Below, piece after piece: positions 21,811 through 50,800 of a stretch of 61,065 nucleotides of DNA. The DNA comes from a virus. Taxonomy: Duplodnaviria; Caudoviricetes. The stretch spans positions 1-61,065 of the IMG/VR virus record IMGVR_UViG_3300025767_000015. The stretch is one strand, 5' to 3'. Each line of letters begins with the position of its first letter. The first letter of the stretch is position 1. The notes below the pieces were generated by a model. It searched no databases, was not told the origin of the DNA, and was given only the letters and a program-made list of their open reading frames with translations. A program made the position numbers and the translations under genes.

Positions 21811-22082
21811 ACTAATAAAGTTTACTATCTTAGAGGTCTCAAACTTTTAAGATATGATAATGCTACTAGGATTTATTGCAATATTGTTTATTGCAAAAAC
21901 ATTAAGATAAAATACAAGGGAAGTTGTACATAAAGAAAACTCTTATGCTTAAAGGGTTTGAAGGTAATCCAGTCTTTTTTATACTGTATCCCAAGATTGT
22001 GTAAAGCAGTTTAAAAAGATTAAAACGCGTACAACATAATAATCATAGCGGTTATGGATTACAAAAGCCGGGAAGAGAATGT

Positions 22083-22116
22083 AGAGAGAGCTTATTAAGC
22101 GTTATAAGCTCTCTCT
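22083..22116. terminator. long hairpin at the convergence of the two gene blocks
   Basis: Perfect 13-bp inverted repeat AGAGAGAGCTTAT-N8-ATAAGCTCTCTCT. Confidence 0.7.
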
Positions 22117-22122
22117 TTCCCG

Positions 22123-22278
22123 TTATTCTTCCTCAAAAACATTAATACGTAATGTTAGTATACCTAAGAATACTTGATAAGTAGTCCACGGTATTTCTTC
22201 ATTAGCCCTTAAAGCCTCAAAGCCAATAGCTAACCTATCATGAGGCCAGTGAAATATAAGTTCTAATGTCCAGTTCAT
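22123..22278 (-). CDS. 51-aa hypothetical protein (MNWTLELIFHWPHDRLAIGFE..), not in the ORF track
   Basis: Manual translation; TAATG-coupled to the phoH stop; ends just before the hairpin. Confidence 0.65.
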   Translation of the reverse strand: MNWTLELIFHWPHDRLAIGFEALRANEEIPWTTYQVFLGILTLRINVFEEE

Positions 22279-22964
22279 TATCTATAATCTTCGTACACTT
22301 TAAGTACAGGTTCAACAATTTCATGACGATGGTTTGTCTTAAGAGTAATAACTTTAAAGCCTTTAACCTGAGCTTCTAATGTATATAGAAAGCCAAAGCC
22401 AGAATCTTTTTTATTACGTAGATCTATCTGAGCTTTATCACCACATATAACCATAGTACTACCTTTACCTAGACGGCCAAGCATCATTTCCATTTGATTC
22501 ATAGTAACGTTTTGAGCTTCATCTAATATGATAAGAGCATCAGTAAACGTTCTACCCCTCATGAATGCAAACGGTACAATTTCTATAAGGCCTTCTTCAA
22601 CACACTTGTCAATCTTAACTTTATCATATAGTAAGTACAAGTTATGGTATATAGGAGCAAGCCACGGATCCATCTTTTCCTTGATATCTCCAGGAAGGAA
22701 ACCGATGTCTTCTTTGGCAACTGTTGGTCTGGTAATGATAATCTTTTCAATTTGCTTTGTAAATAAGAGATCCAACCCAGTTTGCACTGCCACCAGAGTT
22801 TTCCCACTTCCTGCCATACCCTGTAAGACAGTGATTGGGTTTTCAAGTATTTCTGCTTTTGCAAGTTTCTGCTCTTCATTGAGACTTATATTAAATTTAA
22901 TAGGCTTCTTAGGTCTTCTCTTTGCTTTAAATACCTCATCGTTGTGAGATCTAGCTGCTGCCAT
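22278..22964 (-). CDS. phoH: PhoH family ATPase
   Basis: GMAGSGKT, ITRP, GFLPG..EKM.P, FMRGRT, LDEAQN, RLG, GD..Q.D and RH motifs. Confidence 0.95.
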   Translation of the reverse strand: MAAARSHNDEVFKAKRRPKKPIKFNISLNEEQKLAKAEILENPITVLQGMAGSGKTLVAVQTGLDLLFTKQIEKIIITRPTVAKEDIGFLPGDIKEKMDPWLAPIYHNLYLLYDKVKIDKCVEEGLIEIVPFAFMRGRTFTDALIILDEAQNVTMNQMEMMLGRLGKGSTMVICGDKAQIDLRNKKDSGFGFLYTLEAQVKGFKVITLKTNHRHEIVEPVLKVYEDYR

Positions 22965-22966
22965 AA

Positions 22967-23533
22967 TTAATCTTTTTCTGTAGCATACTTGACACCCATA
23001 ATGGTACCAACTATACTGAATGAATTAGTTAACAATATACCAAATAAATTTGACCATGTACTTTCTATTATCTTAGAATCATACCCTTTAGCAAGTATAA
23101 ACAAATACAATACTGTAGTAAGTAATCCTACACCAACAATAATACCCAATGCTAATTTTACTATAATAGAGATCAACTCAAACTGAGTCTTTTTTTGCAT
23201 GACCTCTAAGTCATTCAATGCTTCATCCCGTAAGTTCTCAGCTTCTTTTTTAGAGTCTTCCAACTCTTTCATTTTATCTTCAAGATCTAAAAGCAAATTT
23301 TTATTTAAAATGTTTGCTGCTTCTAATTCTTTATTCTGAGTTTGAACTTGTTTAGTTATATCTAAACGCTTCCTCCTTTGAGATAAATCTTTCTTCTTAC
23401 ACTCTTCAATATAATCCTTAACTTCAGGATCAGAAGTCTTAGCCAACAACTTAACAAAGCTTCCTTCTATAAAAACTTTCTTAGCTTTAGCTTTCTTAAT
23501 GGCTTCTTTAATAGTGTCTTTAGAACTTATCAC
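22967..23533 (-). CDS. coiled-coil protein with two C-terminal TM helices
   Basis: About 115-aa charged coiled coil, then IIVKLALGIIVGVGLLTTVLYLFIL and LFGILLTNSFSIVGTIMGV. GTGA overlap with the receiver gene. Confidence 0.75.
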   Translation of the reverse strand: MISSKDTIKEAIKKAKAKKVFIEGSFVKLLAKTSDPEVKDYIEECKKKDLSQRRKRLDITKQVQTQNKELEAANILNKNLLLDLEDKMKELEDSKKEAENLRDEALNDLEVMQKKTQFELISIIVKLALGIIVGVGLLTTVLYLFILAKGYDSKIIESTWSNLFGILLTNSFSIVGTIMGVKYATEKD

Positions 23534-23964
23534 CTATATACTTTAAACGGATTAGTTTTATTGACATAACCTTGATAGTCTTTATTAAACTCTTCTAGTC
23601 TTGGTTCAATGTCATCAGATTTAATAATCCAAAACTGTGCACCTACGGCTTTAGCTTTTTCAATTTCCCCGCTATCACTGCTGCTAGAAATAATGCCAAT
23701 AACACAACCATTTCCATAATCTTCATTTATTTTACGGATCATTTCTATACCATCAAAGGATGATCCTATTATATTTAAATCAACAAAAACACATTCAGGT
23801 CTTTCTTCACCGTTATCCGGGAACCAAGACTTAAACATTCTGTCAGCTTCATCAGAGCTGTCTAGTGATTCTATAGACAAGGCTATGTCTAACATGCTAC
23901 AGGCATCTTCAAATACCAGATGAAATAGGTTTTCATCATCTATTAGCATTAGTGTATCAATCAT
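23530..23964 (-). CDS. single-domain response regulator (CheY-like receiver)
   Basis: LIDDE (D9/D10), VFVDLN (D62 phosphoacceptor), DGIE, IISSS (S93), GA..WIIK (K115); no output domain. Confidence 0.92.
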   Translation of the reverse strand: MIDTLMLIDDENLFHLVFEDACSMLDIALSIESLDSSDEADRMFKSWFPDNGEERPECVFVDLNIIGSSFDGIEMIRKINEDYGNGCVIGIISSSSDSGEIEKAKAVGAQFWIIKSDDIEPRLEEFNKDYQGYVNKTNPFKVYR

Positions 23965-24863
23965 ATCTCAATAATTATTTTAGTACCTCCCTCATCTCTT
24001 TTTTGAGCTCGTACATTAAATCCATGTTCTTTTAAAATTGCAATTGAGATATTAAGTCCCAATCCCGTACCACTTTCTTTTTGTCCTTCTTTTCTTACGT
24101 AAGGTTTACTGAGTTCTATAAACTCTTCTGAAGTCAAACCTCTACCATTATCTTCTATTAGGATACTTAAGCCTTCTGTAAAGCTATCTTTAATGCTAAT
24201 CTTTACATACTTCGTACCACTATCATTATACTTTAAACCATTCCGAATAAAGTTATCTATAGCTGTACATAGTAACGGCTCATTAATTTCAAAAGACACA
24301 TCTAAACTGTCATCAAGAACAACCTGATTCTTATATGCAGTCAGCTTAAGATAGTCTGACAAAATTTCTTTTATATTTTTTAATTCTTTATTTAACTGTG
24401 CATTCTCCTTTACGAGATTTGTAAATTCAAATACACCTGCGTATACTTTTTGAGCATGGTGTAACCCATCTGTAATTAATCTAAGAGGTGCACCTATCTT
24501 TAACTCCTTAATATCCTCATCTGTAAGCCTTCTATTAAGAGATTTAATCCCTCTTGGTAGATAAGTATTAATTCCACTATGCATGTCATGACGTATGATC
24601 TTTGCAGCATGTTCTAAATAGATGTTCTTCTTATTAAGATCCTTTCTAATCTCAGCTTTATTACTTAAGAACTCTTTTACTACCGTAAAAAACGGAGGCA
24701 TAAAGGCAATAACACTAAGCCACTCAAAGTAATGTGTAAACGTGCTGTGATGTATAACTTTAAAGACAACTAAACTTTTGAATACAAAAAATGTAACCAT
24801 AATTATAGTTGAACATAGTAGGCAAATTCTACTACGTAAAGATATACCAGCTAAAGCTCCCAC
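23961..24863 (-). CDS. membrane sensor histidine kinase
   Basis: Two N-terminal TMs; H-box IIRHDM (H92), N-box NFIRNGLKY, G1 EDNGRG, F-box KPY, G2 GTGLGL, G3 GGTK. Confidence 0.92.
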   Translation of the reverse strand: MGALAGISLRSRICLLCSTIIMVTFFVFKSLVVFKVIHHSTFTHYFEWLSVIAFMPPFFTVVKEFLSNKAEIRKDLNKKNIYLEHAAKIIRHDMHSGINTYLPRGIKSLNRRLTDEDIKELKIGAPLRLITDGLHHAQKVYAGVFEFTNLVKENAQLNKELKNIKEILSDYLKLTAYKNQVVLDDSLDVSFEINEPLLCTAIDNFIRNGLKYNDSGTKYVKISIKDSFTEGLSILIEDNGRGLTSEEFIELSKPYVRKEGQKESGTGLGLNISIAILKEHGFNVRAQKRDEGGTKIIIEI

Positions 24864-25051
24864 TATAGCTTAGATTTCTTTAACCCTAGCTTTTCAAAAA
24901 GCCATTTGCTTGGACAAAACTTGGTCCATACGCCAACCTGAAGCATTGTAGAAACAAAAGCTACTAACCACCAAGACTCAATGAAGATTGCTGTAGTTAA
25001 AACTACAGACATCAATAAGTAAACGGCTCTAACAGAAGTCCAGTTTTTCAT
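24863..25051 (-). CDS. small 2-TM membrane protein (DUF2892/YgaP-like)
   Basis: Two hydrophobic helices followed by TKFCP..LFEKLG. Confidence 0.7.
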   Translation of the reverse strand: MKNWTSVRAVYLLMSVVLTTAIFIESWWLVAFVSTMLQVGVWTKFCPSKWLFEKLGLKKSKL

Positions 25052-25173
25052 AAGTTTATTATTTGTGCTAATGCAATTTGAAATCTATACCACAATCGTA
25101 ATCTAAAAGAAAGATTTTTAAACTCTTTAGTTTTAAATAGATCTTCTAATTCTTTTACATCTTCTATTTTCAT
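25048..25173 (-). CDS. 41-aa hypothetical protein (MKIEDVKELEDLFKTKEFKNLSFRLRLWYRFQIALAQIINL), not in the ORF track
   Basis: Manual translation; starts 10 nt after the upstream stop and is ATGA-coupled to the next gene. Confidence 0.6.
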   Translation of the reverse strand: MKIEDVKELEDLFKTKEFKNLSFRLRLWYRFQIALAQIINL

Positions 25174-25183
25174 ACCTCTAGCT

Positions 25184-25654
25184 TTATACAGTATCGTAAT
25201 CTATATACTGAATAGTTACTTCTTCACCTTCTTCAAGTGCTTTAGCAATTGCAGGGTAAATTCTTTTATACGCCGTAGTACTTGCACCAATGAAACCATC
25301 ACTAGAGCCAAAATTCGTTTGTTGACTGCTACCAACAATGAGACACCCAGCAGTGTGTTCGTCAGTATTACCAGTATGAATAAGGATATACTCAAAGTTA
25401 GGCACATCACGTACCCATAACATTCCCTTGTGCATTTCCCCATATTTCTTTTCATACCTTCCATGAAAACCTCCTACCTTTCTAAGAGTGATTTTATATG
25501 TGCCAGCAGGAATTCGTGTTTCAGACATAACCTTTGTTTCTCTATACTCATCTTCAAGAGTGTAGCATAAAAACTTTCTTCCTTCTGTAACATCAAATAA
25601 AATACCGTTTGTGCTGTCGTCTTGACTGCTAATTCTTAATACTTCTAACTTCAT
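25184..25654 (-). CDS. DUF5675 family protein (L,D-transpeptidase-like fold), putative endolysin
   Basis: CYTLE, IPAGTY, VPNFEYILIHTGNT..TAGCLIVG with His/Cys pair; follows a holin-like gene. Confidence 0.75.
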   Translation of the reverse strand: MKLEVLRISSQDDSTNGILFDVTEGRKFLCYTLEDEYRETKVMSETRIPAGTYKITLRKVGGFHGRYEKKYGEMHKGMLWVRDVPNFEYILIHTGNTDEHTAGCLIVGSSQQTNFGSSDGFIGASTTAYKRIYPAIAKALEEGEEVTIQYIDYDTV

Positions 25655-25899
25655 TTTTTTGCAAACTTTTCAAGACCTGCAATACCAAATGAACCAAGTG
25701 TAATGATTACAAAAGAATTATAGATCCCTTCATTAATAACTAAATCTTTACCAAAGTAACCTGTAACCAAGTCAACTGTAGCAAAGACTACCATAACTGC
25801 AAAAGACATAAATCCAATGATGGTTTTTTCATTGTAATCATTTTCGTCTTTAAAGATGTCAGCAAACGCCATACACTTTAATTTTAATTTTTTAAACAT
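25651..25899 (-). CDS. holin-like 2-TM membrane protein
   Basis: IIGFMSFAVMVVFATV and FVIITLGSFGIAGLEKF helices with a basic C-terminus; ATGA overlap with the endolysin candidate; alternative start at Met11. Confidence 0.6.
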   Translation of the reverse strand: MFKKLKLKCMAFADIFKDENDYNEKTIIGFMSFAVMVVFATVDLVTGYFGKDLVINEGIYNSFVIITLGSFGIAGLEKFAKK

Positions 25900-25926
25900 G
25901 ATGTAATTTGTTGGTTCTTACATATA

Positions 25927-25938
25927 TAAAATACAAAA
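25927..25938 (-). promoter_or_regulatory. putative late promoter TTTTGTATTTTA for the lysis/TCS/phoH operon
   Basis: 11/12 match to the motif at 7051 and 50789; 28 nt upstream of ATG 25899. Confidence 0.5.
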
Positions 25939-25965
25939 AAAGAGGGGCTTATAAAAACCCCTCTT
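25935..25965 (-). terminator. intrinsic terminator after the giant virion genes
   Basis: On the - strand, AAGAGGGG..CCCCTCTT followed by a T-run. Confidence 0.75.
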
Positions 25966-50765: not shown

Positions 50766-50788
50766 AACTAGTTACGATATCTCAATTA

Positions 50789-50800
50789 TAATATACAAAA
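50789..50800 (-). promoter_or_regulatory. putative late promoter TTTTGTATATTA
   Basis: Identical to 7051-7062; 24 nt upstream of ATG 50765. Confidence 0.55.

Follow-up and report, generated by a model that had tools for sequence, protein, structure and literature searches.

Single-domain response regulators are known from the Rcp1/RcpA/RcpB, RPA3017, DrBRR, and CheY systems, and two-component control of holin-like proteins is exemplified by LytSR with LrgAB/CidAB, which uses a 5TM-Lyt sensor and a LytTR DNA-binding output. Here we describe a cassette on the IMG/VR virus record IMGVR_UViG_3300025767_000015 (Duplodnaviria; Caudoviricetes) that encodes a membrane histidine kinase (HK), a stand-alone receiver (RR, a single-domain response regulator), and cc188, a coiled-coil protein of 188 amino acids (aa) with two transmembrane (TM) helices, preceded by a 62-aa 2-TM protein, tm62. 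The window, that is, the whole stretch of DNA analysed, is this entire record, which is linear, 61,065 bp long, and 51% complete by CheckV. Far from being a one-off, the cassette is a signalling module that is widespread in phages and includes a new partner domain.

The cassette shares with the single-domain RR systems a kinase CA domain with an H-box-like motif and a stand-alone (beta-alpha)5 receiver with a full acidic pocket. It differs from them in being phage-encoded, in a DHp domain that is not recognizable as HisKA, in an RR family nearly absent from the cellular genomes searched, and in cc188, which has no counterpart there. Intramembrane-sensing kinases such as LiaS and BceS have two TM helices, a loop of less than about 25 residues, no other input domain, and a linked transporter or LiaF-like partner. 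The cassette HK likewise has two TM helices with a very short loop and no extracytoplasmic sensor, and a small membrane protein is encoded directly upstream; however, neither an ABC transporter nor a LiaF-like gene lies nearby, there is no DNA-binding regulator, and many of its relatives carry a PAS insert. LytSR is the closest functional analogy for lysis control, since the idea of a membrane-state kinase tied genetically to holin-like and murein-hydrolase functions is shared, but the cassette contains neither 5TM-Lyt nor LytTR according to Pfam, is phage-encoded, and would exert its control through protein-protein contact. In T4 lysis inhibition, the RI antiholin acts on the T holin by direct periplasmic binding and no phosphotransfer is involved. 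The concept in common is that an envelope or superinfection signal postpones holin triggering; neither cc188 nor the 62-aa protein matched any PHROG lysis family.

Kinases carried by phages have been described before. The available text of one study presents a histidine kinase as an accessory gene in the agr cassette of phiCDHM1 (PMC3901668), and that of another a kinase in pelagiphage curli (T8SS) clusters (PMC9599517). As far as these texts go, no cognate receiver is described beside either kinase, the phages and hosts are unrelated, and cc188 is absent. A jumbo-phage review mentions, in its accessible part, divergent receiver domains, none of which belongs to a kinase system. An earlier annotation of the same DNA, made without database searches and hereafter called the sequence-only reading, knew of no characterized HK-RR pair in crAss-like phages, and the literature likewise yielded no description of this cassette or of a complete two-component system in these phages, with a mention in supplements being possible. 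Among 50,697 GenBank phage records there was no relative of RR or cc188, and the HK gave only partial matches of less than 32% identity in its C-terminal half.

A conserved unit of HK, RR, and cc188

IMG/VR contains 157 stretches encoding relatives of the HK and 541 encoding relatives of the RR. The best 80 of each were analysed and reduced to 83 loci with distinct RR DNA, and their 1332 same-strand open reading frames (ORFs) were clustered. A single string recurs, always in the order 62-aa protein, HK, RR, and cc188; all four genes are present in 70 of the 83 loci, and most of the others are cut by contig ends. tm62 was matched by tblastn in 72 and by its clustered family in 71 of these loci. 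A metagenome scan seeded by the N-terminal domain (N-domain) of cc188 added 79 further, more divergent loci, 77 of which have the RR gene directly upstream of cc188, while the other two have less than 100 nt of upstream sequence. Each of the 71 complete cc188 homologs among the metagenome loci ends in at least two hydrophobic segments. tm62 was detectable by tblastn, which may miss divergent small proteins, in only five metagenome loci (5/41 of those holding a full-length kinase), and thus appears to belong to a marine subclade and not to the universal core.

Selection on these genes was estimated by pairwise dN/dS against seven relatives, a check put forward with the sequence-only reading. 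Values ranged from 0.02 to 0.29 across the four core genes (HK 0.05–0.16, RR 0.02–0.06, cc188 0.07–0.22, and tm62 0.20–0.29); as dS was mostly saturated, these values are rough, but their direction is unambiguous. HK, RR, and cc188 are translationally coupled, keep a strict order, and evolve under purifying selection, with tm62 before them in the marine clade, and this unit is kept in well over a hundred viral or metagenomic loci and in at least two unrelated phage lineages. Synteny and restriction to viruses had also been proposed as a check: the string is syntenic, but the restriction is incomplete, as rare homologs exist in metagenome-assembled genomes (MAGs) of Bacteroidota.

The annotation of the 62-aa protein as DUF2892-like with two TM segments holds as a likeness to YgaP-like_TM (PF11127, the former DUF2892), but the score of 17.2 bits lies below the cut-off of 25.3. 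Its FCPS motif resembles the C-P motif of that family.

The kinase and the receiver

The HK matches HATPase_c (PF02518; E 1.8e-15, above the cut-off), and its profile matches Thermotoga HK853 (3dge) from DHp helix 2 through the CA domain (E 1e-12); in NCBIfam, the catalytic ends of many kinases and the receiver of NarL were matched, in each case far below the cut-off. An alignment of 23 kinases shows no variation at the catalytic residues picked out in the sequence-only reading (H92 and the N, G1, and G2 boxes). These residues are H92, N204/N208, D238-G240-G242, and G265-G267-G269, and the invariant motifs that hold them read RH92DMH95SGINTY, DNxIRNGLKYND (N box), DNGRG (G1, 238–242), and GxGLGLN (G2, GTGLGLN at 265–271 in the window). 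The H92 motif sits upstream at approximately the expected distance, within an atypical DHp. At the N-terminus, a loop of about 13 residues links two TM helices, and the GTG start is supported by the conservation of residues 1–21 among homologs. Many relatives are longer (411–433 aa) because a PAS domain separates their TM region from the DHp (Pfam PAS on P0090).

The RR likewise retains the residues noted earlier: D9, D10, D62, S93–S95, and K115 show no variation across the 34 receivers aligned, nor across a set of 78 distinct sequences. Its AlphaFold2 model (pLDDT 86.4, pTM 0.82) has the (beta-alpha)5 fold with five strand-helix units and gave 286 matches in the PDB (E ≤ 0.001), the top rows listed being receiver domains throughout; phytochrome-associated single-domain regulators and CheY are among the best fold matches (TM 0.65–0.78). 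The RR profile matches 3ilh and 4zyl. Pfam finds no output domain on the protein, and there is no DNA-binding output. In the best 80 of each IMG/VR set, identity to the window is 79–95% for the RR vs. 59–88% for the HK; in the alignments of 34 receivers and 23 kinases, mean column identity is 84% vs. 54%. The phages have very probably retained a functional kinase-receiver pair.

cc188, a candidate output of the relay

The AlphaFold2 model of cc188 comprises two short helices, a single helix from residue 36 to 149 that runs into the first TM segment, a turn, and a second TM helix. The latter (WSNxFGILLTNSFSIxGTIMGxKY) is near-invariant and the most conserved part of the protein, and the polar residues T60, K61, Q64, and N67 in the long helix are invariant. 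Class II holins are small proteins with two TM helices, an N-in/C-in topology, and a charged C-terminal tail that make membrane lesions. The C-terminus of cc188 consists of two hydrophobic helices and a short charged tail, placed behind a large N-terminal extension in a protein of 188 aa; no holin family in Pfam or PHROGs matched. A search of the Atlas with cc188 returned viral clusters only, without Pfam families.

A search of 1.84 billion representatives with a profile of the cc188 N-domain gave 183 proteins (E ≤ 0.001). In the 150 best-scoring of these 183, the domain is always at or near the N-terminus, and six representatives reach at least 318 aa, five of them being fusions of the N-domain to a kinase core. 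The same kind of fusion is seen in the Bacteroidota MAG G002, where the third gene of the locus encodes 349 aa, with the cc188 N-domain (profile positions 3–110, E 9e-21) followed by a coiled coil, HisKA, and HATPase_c. A second N-domain-kinase fusion follows a receiver gene at locus L179 and is cut by the contig end. By its arrangement, an N-domain joined through a coiled coil to a DHp holds the position of an input domain, and in phages the regulated part would be the TM hairpin of cc188. Two further representatives, P0304 and P0264, carry the N-domain before a FecCD permease and an RNA_pol_Rpb1_5 segment, respectively; each forms one 50% cluster, and they may be gene-call chimeras.

DivK, acting with DivL/PleC, is a single-domain receiver that allosterically controls a downstream kinase. 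The cellular relatives are similar to it in arrangement, having a PAS-containing HK, a single-domain RR, and a second kinase with the cc188 N-domain, and this likeness suggests that receiver-to-kinase control may run through the N-domain in these organisms. Unlike in DivK-type systems, a TM hairpin stands in the place of the kinase core in phages.

The sequence-only reading listed cc188 as a coiled-coil/2-TM protein but overlooked that it is the best candidate for the output of the relay; it likewise missed the PAS domain of many related kinases and the existence of rare cellular relatives. Since the N-domain holds the input-domain position and its gene always follows that of the RR, we slightly favour the view that the RR acts through cc188 by binding this domain. 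A complex prediction for the RR with cc188 residues 1–116 scored 0.11 against a mark of 0.32 in a run that had no controls, and weighs neither way. Alternatively, cc188 might be a membrane-anchored auxiliary phosphatase, for which CheZ offers a comparison, or a scaffold for the phosphorylated RR, the real output being another phage or host protein. Its long coiled coil with four invariant polar residues and the constant placement of the RR gene just upstream would fit such a role. However, a mere anchor would not need TM2 to be the most conserved part of the protein, and the cellular N-domain replaces a sensor domain ahead of the kinase core, which is an input position; we therefore consider the phosphatase or scaffold role quite unlikely.

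Two proteins recur beside cc188 in subsets of the loci. A protein of about 165 aa lies between RR and cc188 in 10 loci (e.g. L128:537-1037) and has a borderline match to an Rz-like spanin PHROG (E 0.009), and one of about 400 aa with an EF-hand match follows cc188 in 14 loci (e.g. L134:4269-5558).

The parent phage and the movement of the cassette

As far as about 21.8 kb, the plus strand of the window carries genes that include those for DNA polymerase and an ATPase; from 22.1 kb on, the genes are on the minus strand and include those for proteins of 1818, 2992, and 1292 aa. The 2992-aa protein resembles the "putative RNA polymerase" of crAss-like phages (about 24% identity over about 600 residues, E down to 2e-12, in 62 GenBank phage records), which makes the crAss-like label for the window phage reasonable. 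The sequence-only reading had also implied this label. Marks of crAss-like phages are a giant virion RNA-polymerase-like protein, a block of very large genes, and hallmark capsid and terminase genes; no capsid or terminase gene was identified in the 51%-complete fragment.

Five large viral records were tested, and the 2992-aa protein was found in the nearest one only. The complete related phage G466 (117.8 kb) contains 33 of the 48 window ORFs, in order. Its giant-protein block (L158–L163) has a stop-free frame of 4991 codons on the minus strand, far exceeding the 2992-aa gene of the window in length. G464 (186.6 kb, 98% complete) has only 6 of the 48 ORFs and different structural genes, yet it has the cassette. 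As G466 carries the cassette in the other gene block and G464 shares few ORFs with the window, gene content and order indicate that the cassette has moved, both inside a phage lineage and from one lineage to another. Two very large metagenome contigs have it as well, L184 (328 kb) and L190 (323 kb), which may be jumbo phages or cells.

Comparison of the window with locus L004 gave dS values of 1.2–3.1 for the four cassette genes, higher than the 0.5–0.7 of the flanking genes for the holin-like protein, DUF5675, and PhoH. This difference suggests that the cassette may have been exchanged by recombination.

Gene neighbourhood and a possible link to lysis

Nine closely spaced minus-strand ORFs span positions 22123–25899 and are flanked by two hairpins (Table 1). 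Both hairpins and the tight junctions reported in the sequence-only reading are borne out: neighbouring ORFs overlap by 4, 4, 1, 4, 4, and 1 nt, and two junctions are spaced by 10 and 2 nt. The ORFs had been taken together as one lysis/PhoH operon; they are indeed contiguous, but the conserved unit is the smaller one of the 62-aa protein, HK, RR, and cc188, and PhoH, DUF5675, and the 51-aa ORF adjoin it in the closest relatives only.

Table 1. Features of the cassette region, listed in the direction of the minus strand; positions refer to the window.
Feature	Position	Strand	Description
Terminator-like hairpin	25940..25965	-	11-bp stem with 5 GC pairs, followed by a T run; separates the 1818-aa gene from the cassette
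82-aa holin-like small membrane protein (cluster fam4)	25651..25899	-	ORF; one strong hydrophobic segment
DUF5675 protein, endolysin candidate, 156 aa	25184..25654	-	Pfam PF18925; HTGN...AGC motif at residues 93-104
41-aa ORF	25048..25173	-	Weakly conserved, no TM segment
62-aa 2-TM protein (tm62)	24863..25051	-	First core gene in the marine clade; FCPS motif conserved
Membrane histidine kinase (HK), 300 aa	23961..24863	-	GTG start; two N-terminal TM helices, DHp, CA domain
Stand-alone receiver (RR), single-domain response regulator, 144 aa	23530..23964	-	Most conserved gene of the cassette
cc188, coiled-coil/2-TM protein, 188 aa	22967..23533	-	GTG start; N-domain ~1-75, coiled coil of variable length, C-terminal 2-TM hairpin
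PhoH-like ATPase, 228 aa	22278..22964	-	Pfam PhoH; adjoins the cassette in the closest relatives only
51-aa ORF	22123..22278	-	Next to PhoH in the closest relatives; cluster fam30, 5 loci
13-bp hairpin after the last ORF	22083..22116	-	No clear T run

The late-type promoter motif proposed upstream of the unit found no support. Sigma-70-like sites, searched with a consensus that is not organism-specific, are not enriched (19 vs. 20.0 ± 4.2 in shuffles), and an intergenic 17-mer recurs, at two places, only when three mismatches are allowed, as also happens in 15 of 100 shuffles. An intergenic motif, TTTGTATATTATAATTG at 50783–50799 (minus strand), lies 5' of a 451-aa gene and resembles the motif at 25921–25937 before the holin-like gene to a degree not above chance.

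Positions 21907–25964 of the window were found at about 97–98% identity in contigs from three marine DNA runs (X2, X4, and X10) of three studies. The contigs of all three runs skip 83 bp at 21823–21907; those of X2 and X4 are unlike the window just past the upstream hairpin (25964), and the X10 match ends at 25964. Since the contigs diverge, end, or skip at these places, both hairpins thus appear to mark mosaic boundaries. Four short contigs of a marine metatranscriptome run (X20) cover parts of PhoH, DUF5675, and the junction of PhoH with cc188; such RNA-library contigs are no proof of transcription, and the missing cover of kinase and receiver is uninformative.

PhoH was assigned with PF02562 (E 5.2e-63, 212.7 bits, above the cut-off) and phrog_170, whereas the 82-aa, 41-aa, 188-aa, and 51-aa proteins had no match in Pfam, PHROGs, or NCBIfam. 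The holin-like label of the 82-aa protein accordingly draws on its hydrophobic segment but has no family match behind it; homologs occur in 43 of the 83 loci, usually just before the endolysin gene. The identification of the 156-aa protein as DUF5675 proved correct (E 4.7e-27, 94.5 bits vs. a cut-off of 26.7), with a weak match to Tlde1 and an assignment to phrog_1501; against PDB sequences, nothing scored below E 0.3. In the accessible part of a preprint, DUF5675 is called C82-like by structural comparison. Its role as a lysin is supported by its position, by non-orthologous replacement, and by that structural comparison.

Five non-orthologous endolysin families are found near the RR (PG_binding_1 with Amidase_2, GH19, Peptidase_M15_3, DUF5675, and a phrog_33083-like family); in relatives, the other four take the slot that DUF5675 has in the window. 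An endolysin gene lies on the same strand within about 3.3 kb of the RR gene (1.1–3.2 kb) in 49 of the 83 loci, and in 20 of the 36 well-flanked ones, which have at least 4 kb upstream and at least 3.5 kb downstream. In the unrelated phage G464 (L041), holin-like genes stand on either side of the cassette and a GH19 gene lies downstream, and a 140-aa protein with weak holin matches is often found near the cassette. Because the endolysin has been replaced non-orthologously while the neighbourhood was kept across two lineages, the arrangement argues for a functional tie to lysis.

A different role that the same neighbourhood bears on is that of a superinfection or conflict sensor, which would detect a second infection, envelope damage, or host defence, and in which the cc188 hairpin would block the entry of DNA from competing phages or counter abortive infection instead of timing lysis. 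The intramembrane-sensing build of the HK would suit such a sensor, as would the restriction of cc188 to viral clusters in the Atlas search. The cassette is also mobile between unrelated lineages, has mosaic boundaries, and varies in position near strand-switch regions, the first two of these being common for conflict genes. However, the recurrent same-strand adjacency to holin and endolysin genes more directly fits a role in lysis, and the sequences give no pointer to DNA-entry proteins. We regard a conflict sensor as unlikely.

Cellular relatives

A pattern search over cellular genomes, with one genome per species and 185,579 species, returned nine loci, all in MAGs of scattered phyla, one of which (L152) is only a distant kinase match. 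Four of these have the full phage-type string of HK, RR, and cc188, and two more are cut by contig ends (L144, L145, L146, L147, L149, and L151); all six may be phage or cell. In a Verrucomicrobia-labelled MAG (L144:4877-8618), two tandem kinase genes precede RR and cc188. On an 89-kb contig binned as Bdellovibrionota, likewise phage or cell, genes for PrkA and SpoVR lie 1–4 kb downstream of the cassette (L146:8512-11775).

Two copies are chromosomal and belong to related Bacteroidota MAGs, each of which is found in the other's set of relatives. G001 carries a PAS-kinase and RR on a 967-kb contig among sulfur-transport, cytochrome c, TetR, and ABC1 genes, and G002 a triple-PAS kinase, RR, and the fusion gene described above among type-IX-secretion substrates and CreD. 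A quick tree of the kinase core and RR with 84 rows, as suggested in the sequence-only reading, places all 78 viral rows on one side of a branch (SH-aLRT 97), with the two chromosomal copies pairing outside it (SH-aLRT 99); the tree is only midpoint-rooted, and the direction of transfer between phages and Bacteroidota can be read either way.

These homologs are what speaks for a passive capture, in which a recent bacterial operon, a misassembly, or a decaying passenger would have no phage role. Near-identical chromosomal genes would be expected in that case, but the nearest copies are 52–65% identical (kinase core 52–54% and RR 59–64% by tblastn; 60–65% in the genome search table) and fall outside the viral branch. 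Moreover, dN/dS is far below 1, the stretch recurs in the three marine DNA runs, and the cassette is present in CheckV-complete phage genomes. A passive capture is therefore extremely improbable.

Cellular relatives also enter into the possibility of host reprogramming, in which the phage HK and RR would cross-talk with host two-component pathways by phosphorylating regulators or draining kinases and, as auxiliary regulatory genes, alter the physiology of the infected host, with cc188 and the small TM protein as accessories. The far stronger conservation of the RR than of the HK would fit a constraint from further partners, possibly of the host; some phages have genes of a typical auxiliary kind, those for PhoH and ribonucleotide reductase, at the flanks of the cassette; and cellular relatives do occur in Bacteroidota. 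Yet, with a threshold of E ≤ 1e-12, a sample across the phylum had the RR family in just 1 of 401 genomes, and the sets of relatives of G001 and G002 had it in 1 of 61 and 2 of 81, respectively, so that typical hosts probably lack a cognate pathway. The strict co-inheritance of HK, RR, and cc188 argues for a closed circuit, and there is no DNA-binding output. Cross-talk with the host is thus improbable as the role of the cassette.

A proposed relay and the evidence against it

The mechanism we propose for the cassette is a relay from membrane to membrane. The HK, with its intramembrane-sensing build, would read the state of the membrane or envelope, perhaps with the 62-aa protein, and in relatives with a PAS insert it would also read a cytoplasmic cue. 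It would autophosphorylate on H92 and pass the phosphoryl group to D62 of the RR, which has no DNA-binding output and would bind the cc188 N-domain. The signal would then run along the long cc188 helix to the TM hairpin and change a membrane property. The likeliest role, and also the least certain step, is that the cassette may gate or delay holin-dependent lysis, which is proposed because it is repeatedly found on the same strand beside holin-like and endolysin genes.

In its full form, this reading describes a widespread and essentially virus-restricted device in which the HK senses membrane or cytoplasmic state, the RR docks on the new input domain of cc188, and the near-invariant 2-TM hairpin acts as a signal-gated holin, an antiholin, or a membrane switch, with which marine and freshwater phages of unrelated lineages would choose by His-Asp transfer when to lyse or whether competitors are admitted; the same domain would be a new receiver-to-kinase relay in a few Bacteroidota. 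We put this forward tentatively, as a possibility that may well prove wrong in one or more of its parts.

Several observations weigh against the proposed device. HisKA (PF00512) had no Pfam match in the phage HK even at E ≤ 1, and hhalign of the HK profile against the HisKA-bearing fusion kinases aligned the CA domain only. H95 is as invariant as H92. In our reading, H92 is the better fit to an H-box, its context approximating the usual pattern, HE(L)(R/K)(T)P(L) or H-E/D-x-basic-S/T; as homology to HisKA gave no assignment, the choice of H92 as the probable acceptor comes from invariance and likeness to this pattern. The RR only marginally passes the cut-off for Response_reg (PF00072; E 4.9e-7, 30.3 bits vs. 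30.2) and has K115-S116 in place of the usual K-P motif. cc188 has no known family or fold in Pfam, PHROGs, PDB, or the Atlas, and its model matched nothing in the PDB at E ≤ 0.001, with generic helical hairpins being all that came up. The basis for the proposed contact between RR and cc188 consists of gene order and domain fusion.

The lysis step meets objections of its own, beginning with the fact that the window already has a separate holin-like gene of 82 aa. No lysis-like family was found in 12 of the 36 well-flanked loci. In G466, it is the ribonucleotide reductase genes that precede the cassette, on the strand of the replication genes and in another gene block than in the window, which lends no support to the late expression together with lysis genes suggested in the sequence-only reading. 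The lysis linkage is therefore neither universal nor bound to a late operon, and the loci are related to each other, so that the linkage counts are not independent events. Lysis timing as the role of the cassette is accordingly possible but doubtful. As for the model as a whole, including cc188 as the output, we lean by a small degree towards seeing the window as a fragment of an uncultured marine crAss-like phage with a self-contained, virus-adapted phosphorelay cassette.

Implications for phage biology

Phages are usually thought to read the state of their host through simple repressors, small peptides, and holin clocks. If the proposed mechanism is true, viral decision-making in abundant aquatic phage-host systems would gain a new layer, in the form of a complete phosphorelay from sensor to effector. 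The cassette is found in hundreds of environmental phage contigs, is under strong purifying selection, and has been exchanged between unrelated lineages. The cc188 N-domain is an unannotated family that appears to couple a single-domain RR in phages to a membrane hairpin and in bacteria to a second kinase. What the partners of orphan CheY-like receivers are is a long-standing question, to which the domain offers an answer that is concrete and can be tested. If the link to lysis is also true, the burst timing of marine Bacteroidota phages would respond to the environment, which would matter for models of carbon flow.

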